From the NCBI RefSeq assembly GCF_000027125.1, contig NC_017626.1: a stretch of 64,000 nt of DNA; one strand, given 5' to 3'. The notes beneath the pieces are model-generated. The model had not been told where the DNA came from and did not search any database. It saw only the letters and a list, made by a program, of their open reading frames with translations. Below, one piece after another: positions 15,147 to 16,638 of this stretch. How positions within the stretch are numbered: position 1 is the stretch's first letter; each line of letters begins with the position of its first letter. This DNA is from Escherichia coli 042. GTDB lineage: Bacteria > Pseudomonadota > Gammaproteobacteria > Enterobacterales > Enterobacteriaceae. Both the position numbers and the translations under genes were made by a program.

Positions 15147-15391
15147 CTGAAAAATAACTCTTTAAAATACCTGACATGTAATACAGAAAAAACACAAAAC
15201 CATACCTTAAATAAAAACCTGATTATCAAGCAGATATGCATGGATAAACTACAAGACGAGATATAAACCACCCTGCATTTAAATAAACAATAAACAACAT
15301 CAGAAAAATAATTCTGCTCTATGGTTTACATTCAAAAATATCATTTATACTTTTCAGAACATCACCAGCAAGGCATAAACAAGGAAACTAA

Positions 15392-15727
15392 ATGAAGTGG
15401 ATTGTGATTGATACAGTTATCCAGCCATCATGCGGAATATCTTTTTCAGTCATATGGAGTAAAATAAAATTAATAATCTGGTATCAATCGGATGCTTTCT
15501 TACCTCCTGAAAGTATATTTACACTGACTCACACAGGCATCATGCTCAATAACAAAGTGCTACCTGTAACCATTTACAACGTAGTACCATTCAATAAAAC
15601 ATTCTGGAATTTAATCAAAAACAGCCAGGAATGCCCTACAAATACAGATAACGTATTGAATGAATGCTTTAATAACCGTTGCACTCTGCAAATATGTCCT
15701 TATGGACTAAAACAACAAAGTCCATAA
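15392..15727 (+). CDS. hypothetical Cys-containing protein (moron, opposite to late operon)
   Basis: 111 aa ORF in very AT-rich DNA; AAGGA RBS before ATG; followed by hairpin at 15762-15783. Confidence 0.4.
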
Positions 15728-15761
15728 GGAGTTTACTCACATCTGACAAAATCAATATAAA

Positions 15762-15783
15762 CAGCCCCTCCGGAGAGGGGCTG
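15762..15783. terminator. stem-loop, candidate bidirectional terminator
   Basis: CAGCCCCTC-CGGA-GAGGGGCTG perfect hairpin; T-rich tract on minus strand side. Confidence 0.45.
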
Positions 15784-16174
15784 GAGAGTGGCGCTATGTG
15801 CCATTGCATGGTGCCGGGTGCCTCCCGGTGAATTCAGTACCAGCACCTGAATCCGCGATTATCCCATATACCTACTCGCTGATTGCCCCTCCGCACAGGG
15901 GGATTCACCATGCCAGTTTCTTTTAACAAACTCCCCGCAAACCAGACAACAGTCAACCGCCTGAATTGTGAAGTATTTAAAAATTTCTCCCGCTAACTGA
16001 TACCCGGCTAACAGTCTGGCGTTTTCTTTTTCAGCAACGGGAAAGCAACAACCACCACACCCGCCACCAGCACACCGTCAGCCAGCACTGACATTATCCG
16101 GCTGCTGCAATGCCATTCACAAAAACAGTAAGCAATCACTTTTTACCGTAACAGGTGATAATCCAGATATGTAT

Positions 16175-16528
16175 CTACCCCAGATGAGTAATCCGAAGTT
16201 CATCCATACCACAGGTCCTGGCTATTCTGTTGTACTCCTGAACAAGAGCAAATAATTCTGAATTAGCAACCATGAACTCATCGCTAACCCTTTGTATAGC
16301 ATCACTATTCAGAATAATAACGTCTCTTCCCGAAAGACGATCAGGAGTACAAAACAAAACTGTCAAACGGCTGAAGGCCTTTGCTCGTGCTGCATTGACT
16401 ATATCAATACGCTGCCTAAGGATGAAACACCCCGACGCCTCATCAATATTCACTCTACCCACACCATATGAATGATAAATATTTAATGCTGAAAAAACCA
16501 TTAGACCGTATAACAAACACTCAATCAA
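16175..16528 (-). CDS. hypothetical protein (moron region)
   Basis: 117 aa ORF between phage tRNAs and lysis genes; no recognisable family; not Stx-like. Confidence 0.35.
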   Translation of the reverse strand: MIECLLYGLMVFSALNIYHSYGVGRVNIDEASGCFILRQRIDIVNAARAKAFSRLTVLFCTPDRLSGRDVIILNSDAIQRVSDEFMVANSELFALVQEYNRIARTCGMDELRITHLG

Positions 16529-16638
16529 TACTTAACAGAACTTTTATTTTTGACAAACATATAATATTTTCAACAATATCCTGAGCCAGGTATATTTCAG
16601 TATAAGGCTCTGCCGGAAGGAATCTGGAAGAATGAATA

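Follow-up and report, generated by a model that had tools for sequence, protein, structure and literature searches.

A mosaic cargo region with two AT-rich insertions around an STnc100-family small RNA gene in a lambdoid prophage of Escherichia coli

Introduction

In Escherichia coli 042, a lambdoid prophage carries an AT-rich block with the phage tRNA genes on one side and the lysis genes on the other. With a probability that we would put at about 0.88, this block is the cargo region, mosaic in its make-up, of a lambdoid prophage of the CFT073 type, and it is made of two independent AT-rich insertions that flank a conserved small RNA gene. Its components are mostly known prophage cargo, namely iraL and the STnc100 small RNA, and one uncharacterised small gene, encoding a protein of 92 amino acids, is left over. 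The DNA analysed is a stretch of 64,000 nucleotides, hereafter the window, in which the late operon of the prophage is carried by the minus strand; all positions given are those of the window. A first reading of the same letters (the original prediction) had described the block as a late-expressed cargo moron at the position where Stx phages carry stx, with two ORFs belonging to no recognisable family and about 450 bp of apparently non-coding DNA.

Setting and composition of the block

On its Q-proximal side the block is bounded by two phage tRNA genes that were recognised both by ARAGORN and by the Rfam tRNA family, one with a CAT anticodon (16816-16891, minus strand), designated tRNA-Ile in RefSeq, and the other a tRNA-Arg (TCT) (16639-16715, minus strand); the gene of the Q antiterminator itself is located at 17035-17856 on the same strand. 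The first late gene encountered past the block, ahead of the holin, encodes a DUF1737 small protein (14943-15146, minus strand), matches PHROG 2036 with an E value of 3e-48 and is annotated by PGAP, which flags it as partial. The holin, a YdfR-family gene, the lysozyme gene (13468-14001) and Rz follow. The order Q, tRNAs, block, DUF1737, holin, lysozyme, Rz bears out the predicted placement of the block between phage tRNAs and lysis genes.

With 39.1% GC, as against ~51% in its flanks and 53% in the window, the block as a whole deserves the description of AT-rich that it had been given, but its composition is not uniform, since two AT-rich islands, at 15133-15762 (32.4% GC) and 16140-16630 (38.5% GC), surround a core whose two parts have 55% GC (15753-15942) and 48% GC (15943-16139), respectively. 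The whole 1,551-bp block is found with 99.4-99.9% identity in many E. coli chromosomes, the identity to CFT073 being 99.4%.

A promoter scan of the block returned six sites, as against 5.5 expected in shuffled sequence, hence no excess; a minus-strand site at 16573-16546, considered as a promoter of the 92-aa gene, was discarded because the scan performed no better than on shuffled sequence. Two Rfam matches below the gathering score, one of Plastid-ycf2 on a tRNA gene and one of Trp_leader (E 0.061) on the terminator after Q, were taken as chance.

Two insertion slots

The breakpoints of the insertions were set by comparison with phage phi296, which is "empty" of both cargoes. Homology between the window and this phage is confined to three segments, i.e., 15024-15132, corresponding to the start of the DUF1737/NanS gene, 15763-15980, and 16631-16931 in the tRNA region. 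What separates them in the window is, on one side, insertion A (15981-16630), which contains a DUF3927 gene remnant and the 92-aa gene and has a length of 650 bp compared to the 57 bp found between tRNA-Arg and STnc100 in phi296, and, on the other, insertion B (15133-15762), the AT-rich iraL cassette, which separates the STnc100 terminator from the DUF1737 gene with its 630 bp, compared to 231 bp in phi296. Each insertion occurs without the other in another phage, B being found without the 92-aa gene in vB_EcoS-640R1 and A without iraL in mEp460_ev081, and the two are therefore regarded as independent.

The identity of the two slots emerges from the Stx2 phage Min27, whose genes are arranged in the order Q, ileZ, argN, argO, stx2A, stx2B, a homologue of STnc100 (corresponding to 15763-15980), the NanS-p esterase gene and the holin gene. 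Since stx2AB lies in this phage between the tRNAs and STnc100, insertion A occupies the stx slot; insertion B occupies the next slot downstream, between STnc100 and DUF1737. The window shares with Stx2 phages such as Min27 and 933W an interval that extends from the phage tRNAs to STnc100 and is placed downstream of Q on the late strand; however, whereas in the Stx2 phages this interval holds stx2AB, in the window it holds one small helical protein gene and a gene remnant, with no similarity to the toxin subunits in either sequence or fold. As the original prediction had maintained, nothing in the block resembles Shiga toxin: six ORFs were scanned with NCBIfam and PHROG and none gave a match to its subunits, and Pfam, applied to the ORFs of the 92-aa protein and of the DUF3927 protein, gave no match other than DUF3927 itself, none being Stx-like.

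The small gene of the stx slot

The minus-strand ORF was first read as 117 codons (16175-16528) beginning with a TTG at 16528 and endowed with a hydrophobic N-terminus. This ORF does exist, but the gene that it contains probably begins further downstream, at the GTG at 16453, to yield a 92-aa helical-hairpin protein (16175-16453, minus strand), so that the hydrophobic N-terminus would remain untranslated. One indication comes from the homologues (21-63% identity), which all have a length of ~92-95 aa and start at the equivalent of GTG 16453; the distant ones, of 91-95 aa, have at this point an ATG preceded by a Shine-Dalgarno sequence, whereas the Shine-Dalgarno sequence of the GTG in the window is weak. 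The preference for the shorter form rests in part also on the AlphaFold2 model of the 117-aa ORF, the N-terminus of which is of low confidence (pLDDT 42-52). On the other hand, the stretch of 25 codons that precedes GTG 16453 displays several synonymous changes between two lineages, which would favour the longer protein; a 1-nt indel that another lineage has in this stretch counts against it.

The 92-aa gene matches PHROG 2873 over the whole profile with an E value of 3.7e-69. This family and the distantly related PHROG 4827 comprise uncharacterised phage proteins of ~92-108 aa, with which the window gene agrees in size and in its placement downstream of Q; the profile of PHROG 2873 has an N-terminal extension of 16 residues, whereas the distant members are without it. 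A profile search against 1.84 billion representatives yielded 20 relatives of the protein, and R23, P37, N64, Y74 and N75 are the residues conserved in the alignment of the family.

The possibility that this ORF is a chance open frame in an AT-rich spacer, kept open only through the youth and clonality of the DNA, has some circumstances in its favour: neither in the CFT073 record nor in any other RefSeq record inspected has PGAP placed a gene at this ORF, Pfam gave no match with the single 92-aa sequence or with any member of the alignment, NCBIfam gave none with the 92-aa protein, and the start is non-ATG with a weak Shine-Dalgarno sequence. It is nevertheless quite improbable in view of the way in which the gene has diverged. 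Indeed, in a second E. coli lineage, in which the protein identity is 56-60%, 93 of the 279 nucleotides differ (33%) and yet there are no indels and the frame is open; 44 of these 93 differences fall at third codon positions, and the dN/dS ratio amounts to 0.28 in what is one pairwise comparison. In addition, the homology between the two lineages stops at the stop codon, relatives of the same length at 21-40% identity are found in Citrobacter, Salmonella, Proteus and Xenorhabdus, and the structural model is a confident one. Coding conservation is what these comparisons reveal, and on the strength of the alignments the 92-aa gene is to be considered a real gene under purifying selection. A count over 5,426 complete E. 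coli genomes found this DNA in 1,185.

The model in question, obtained with AlphaFold2 from a nine-sequence alignment, is a hairpin of two helices whose loop, TPDR, is conserved (pLDDT 88, pTM 0.76). Comparison of the fold with the PDB returned nothing at E 0.001, all matches being generic helical hairpins such as those of EmrA and prefoldin, and comparison with AFDB50 returned only members of the same family, uncharacterised proteins of enterobacteria. GapR/UPF0335 proteins, the only ones to appear when the profile was compared with solved structures, were discarded as their E values (0.05-0.25) are non-significant. PADLOC, too, gave no match with the 92-aa protein.

Four relatives from four different prophages, namely P0016, P0027, P0028 and that of the window, are all found downstream of Q. 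The relative P0033, which displays 21% identity and lies by Mu-type baseplate genes, was, as a member of the neighbouring PHROG 4827, set aside for the purpose of inferring function. In the prophage that carries P0027, a TerB-like gene, a DUF3927 gene and the holin come after this homologue of the 92-aa gene, a neighbourhood which suggests that the 92-aa and DUF3927 genes of the window are what is left of a module of three genes after the loss of tciA.

The DUF3927/TciB-like remnant

The second component of insertion A is a gene for a DUF3927/TciB-like small membrane protein of 43 aa (16008-16139, minus strand) whose N-terminus is truncated and replaced. The ORF matches Pfam PF13064 with an E value of 1.8e-27 over positions 7-53 of the 53 of the model, as well as PHROG 1470, "TciB-like" (E 7.8e-13). 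The gene has the same location upstream of STnc100 as that of the TciB of phage JLK-2012 (54 aa), and the last 32 residues of the two proteins, among them the second hydrophobic segment, are almost the same; however, the first hydrophobic segment, present in JLK-2012 TciB, is substituted in the window copy by 11 unrelated residues, and the DNA homology with JLK-2012 ends at 16107. Lambdoid phages such as JLK-2012 possess a TciA-TciB pair, composed of a TerB-like protein and a DUF3927 peptide, whereas the window lacks tciA, given that only 35 bp separate the DUF3927 gene from the 92-aa gene. The DUF3927 gene is probably, as far as can be judged from the alignment, the remnant of such a tciA-tciB pair, and it is the only ORF of the block that turned out to be a gene fragment.

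The STnc100 small RNA

Between the two insertions lies a full-length prophage small RNA gene of the STnc100 family (15753-15942, minus strand), which matches Rfam RF02076 with 132.4 bits (E 6e-30), the gathering score of this family being 47, and the alignment extends over positions 1-206 of the 206 of the model without being cut off. Published qPCR primers for STnc100 (PMC12370729) find exact matches at 15820 and 15893. The ~450 bp that had been taken as non-coding contain, as a scan for small ORFs and small RNAs revealed, this full-length gene together with that of the DUF3927 protein, and cannot be so described. Two short plus-strand ORFs, at 15798-15926 and 15883-15996, were judged spurious, being antisense inside STnc100, though annotated by PGAP and in some phage records.

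The small RNA ends with an intrinsic terminator, a GC-rich perfect hairpin at 15762-15783 (minus strand) indicated by both the terminator scan and the Rfam alignment. Its 9-bp stem has seven GC pairs and is followed on the minus strand by TTTATATT; the plus strand continues after the hairpin with GAGAGTGG, which contains no U-tract. Since the T-tract is found on the minus strand only, the hairpin is assigned to STnc100 and not to the 111-aa plus-strand ORF, to which a perfect hairpin terminator had been attributed; another perfect hairpin, discussed below, does lie at the end of that ORF.

In both Min27 and phi296 the STnc100 gene follows the cargo slot and precedes the DUF1737/NanS-p gene. 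In the Stx2 phages a distance of 75 nt separates it from the stx2 operon upstream (PMC12370729), and it overlaps the Hfq-bound EcOnc27/sRNA103 (PMC12711010). Eleven transcribed copies have been described in EDL933, one of which was confirmed by Northern blotting (PMC5331693), and a relationship to PasD has been proposed in a preprint (bioRxiv 10.64898/2026.05.13.724894). The window copy resembles those of the Stx2 phages in having a full-length match to the covariance model, a 3' intrinsic terminator and a place just upstream of a DUF1737/NanS-p gene and the holin; it differs from them insofar as no stx lies upstream, the iraL cassette is interposed between STnc100 and DUF1737, and the DNA identity is ~70-77%. 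Because there is no stx in the window, the STnc100-stxB pairing that has been proposed is meaningless here.

iraL, the cargo of the second slot

The largest ORF of the block, for which no family had been recognised, encodes an experimentally characterised protein. It is iraL (15392-15727, plus strand), the gene of a 111-aa RssB anti-adaptor, to which PGAP gives the name "anti-adapter protein IraM"; the product is 100% identical over 111 residues to WP_000871291.1 of CFT073. Residues 1-110 match NCBIfam NF007393 (IraM/IraL) over positions 1-113 of the 114 of the profile, with 162 bits against a curated cut-off of 121, and residues 1-78 match the solved structure of IraM, 8TWD (E 9e-32). The CFT073 gene (c1429) received the name iraL from Hryckowian et al. 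(2014), who reported that its product interacts with RssB and increases the level and the stability of σS in log phase in CFT073, mapped its transcription start by 5' RACE and found IraL and IraM to be 58.9% identical (PMC4045071). IraL of CFT073 is a paralogue of IraM of K-12 and of RssC of Salmonella. Later papers have described iraL mRNA or protein as responsive to the loss of Fur and to temperature upshift.

That the ORF has its own ribosome binding site proved correct, a Shine-Dalgarno sequence AAGGA being present upstream of iraL. The published 30-nt 5'-RACE sequence ACATCACCAGCAAGGCATAAACAAGGAAAC (PMC4045071) finds an exact match at 15359, i.e., 33 nt before the iraL ATG, and is preceded by a putative promoter on the plus strand (promoter and start, 15325-15359) with a -35 hexamer TTTACA at 15325-15330 and a -10 hexamer TATACT at 15346-15351, both read by eye. 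Promoter and leader differ from those of CFT073 by only two SNPs, at -1 and +31. To judge from these motifs, iraL has a σ70 promoter of its own with a published mapped start. At the other end of the gene, a perfect 11-bp hairpin with a 10-nt loop (15698-15729, plus strand) overlaps the stop codon, and folding of the RNA from 15685 to 15800 gives -39.7 kcal/mol with z = -4.65. This hairpin is followed by only a short UUU and is a candidate 3' end or mRNA stabiliser; its role as terminator of the iraL mRNA is inferred.

The context in which iraL is found, i.e., Q, tRNAs, cargo, DUF1737 and holin, is the same in CFT073, as are the protein and the sequence of the RACE start, while the CFT073 prophage has three tRNAs and an IS200C near them as opposed to two tRNA genes and no IS200C in the prophage of the window. 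Among 5,426 complete E. coli genomes the iraL cassette was detected in 1,445, and it is conserved with at least 95% identity in nearly all of ~1,400 genomes.

Since it lies on the strand opposite to that of the late operon, iraL is a self-contained moron and not a Q-dependent cargo. The proposal that the block represents Q-dependent cargo at the stx position therefore does not apply to iraL, which is on the opposite strand, has a promoter of its own and occupies the next slot; it may hold for the stx slot proper, with its 92-aa gene and DUF3927 remnant.

That the block is a single AT-rich moron of unknown families, under late control by Q like stx and perhaps bringing a new toxin or other virulence cargo, is a highly improbable reading, already largely refuted by the identity of IraL. 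To its credit, the place between phage tRNAs and lysis genes is correct and one gene, that of the 92-aa protein, is indeed uncharacterised and located in the stx slot on the late strand; however, the largest ORF is a known gene transcribed from the opposite strand by its own promoter, the supposed gap contains STnc100 and the DUF3927 gene, the two insertions are separate and occur independently in other phages, and the 92-aa protein, which starts past the hydrophobic stretch, forms two long helices in its model and gave no match of the toxin kind. The least probable of the readings considered is that the prophage is decaying and the block is its inert debris, in which iraL, STnc100 and the small genes have no effect on the host; although the DUF3927 gene is truncated, the DUF1737 gene is partial according to PGAP and the related CFT073 prophage has an IS200C near its tRNAs, this reading is contradicted by the effect of an identical IraL on the level and stability of σS in CFT073 in the same context (PMC4045071), by the response of iraL mRNA or protein to Fur loss and temperature, by the transcription of STnc100 copies in EHEC and by the at least 95% identity with which the cassette has been kept.

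How the cargo region may work

If the block is a mosaic cargo region as proposed above, its parts would be expressed in different states of the prophage. In the lysogen, iraL would be transcribed from its own σ70 promoter, antisense to the late operon, and IraL would bind the adaptor RssB so that ClpXP could not degrade σS, with a stronger general stress response during growth as the outcome; this effect has been shown for the identical CFT073 protein. STnc100 would be produced from the late strand and end at its own intrinsic terminator, other copies of the family being expressed. The 92-aa protein and the DUF3927 remnant would presumably be read, like stx2, from the late transcript antiterminated by Q, an assignment that for the 92-aa protein is made with low confidence; with equally little confidence, the same cytoplasmic protein may be pictured as acting through the binding of a partner protein, not as an enzyme. 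Finally, after induction the late transcript might read through the STnc100 terminator and proceed antisense across iraL, which would thereby be turned off.

The layout is convergent, with iraL facing STnc100 and the late transcript. It is conceivable, if unlikely, that the 92-aa protein, a relative of which is met again after Q in lambdoid prophages from several enterobacterial genera, is a functional conversion or host-manipulation factor expressed late from the stx slot and, separately, that the convergent layout couples the stabilisation of σS to the state of the prophage.

Biological significance

The uncharacterised gene points to a missing annotation in the RefSeq records that were inspected, inasmuch as a small conserved gene resides in the toxin slot and its DNA is carried by approximately one fifth of the complete E. 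coli genomes. The cargo region of these prophages comprises two distinct insertion slots placed on either side of STnc100, with Shiga toxin genes using one and iraL the other, and what had been supposed to be an unknown moron is iraL, a known route by which a prophage raises the general stress response of its host.

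Cargo between Q and the lysis genes

At the position held in the window by iraL, the plus-strand gene for an RssB anti-adaptor, the phage mEp460_ev081 has a "TolA protein" gene (2409–2837), from which it follows that the slot extending from the prophage sRNA gene STnc100 to the lysis genes carries further cargo; a TolA gene (PF06519) was found too in another prophage contig, L006. In three E. coli contigs (L010, L011 and L012), which bear its second lineage, the 92-aa gene (PHROG 2873) lies directly downstream of a gene coding for a 241-aa AraC-type (HTH_18) regulator, the two genes being located between the late antiterminator gene Q and the lysis genes; in L006–L009 the regulator gene and the 92-aa gene are separated by an IS3-family element.

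STnc100 itself is represented in the phage vB_EcoS-640R1 by a tandem pair of STnc100-like segments (2201–3371 and 3624–3975), the one adjoining iraL being 97% identical to the window and the second, which adjoins a DUF3927-like ORF, displaying ~78% identity. Two short plus-strand ORFs run antisense within STnc100, namely 15798–15926, of which the part 15798–15923 is annotated by PGAP as a partial "hypothetical protein" pseudogene, and 15883–15996, which matches PHROG 27294; as genes, both look like spurious calls made on conserved sRNA DNA.

The DUF1737 gene (14943–15146), the first late gene after the block, is partial according to PGAP, its C-terminus being missing, as though only the N-terminal piece of a NanS-p esterase had been left. 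Residues 2–66 of its product match positions 3–67 of the 67-aa PHROG 2036, i.e., nearly the full length of this family, and therefore the stand-alone versions constitute a separate family.

Terminator-like hairpin and tRNA genes

In the interval that separates the Q gene from the tRNA genes, the minus strand contains a terminator-like hairpin (16935–16954) followed by TTTTATTG; this hairpin occupies the position expected for tR′, the terminator of the late promoter. The weak Trp_leader match obtained with Rfam across 16928–17034 (E 0.061) probably reflects nothing else than this hairpin. In Stx phages, the regulatory sRNA StxS is the short transcript whose 3′ end lies at this terminator.

The tRNA with the CAT anticodon (16816–16891) is assigned to Met by ARAGORN but to Ile by RefSeq, which corresponds to the ileZ type of Stx phages. 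At the tRNA site CFT073 (L001, 4540–5393) possesses an additional tRNA-Arg and an IS200C, whereas the window has neither. Two further tRNA genes, tRNA-Ser (CGA; 32386–32475, minus strand) and tRNA-Asn (GTT; 33467–33542, plus strand), were called ~16 kb away from the block, and this pair could mark the site of integration of the prophage or, alternatively, another island.
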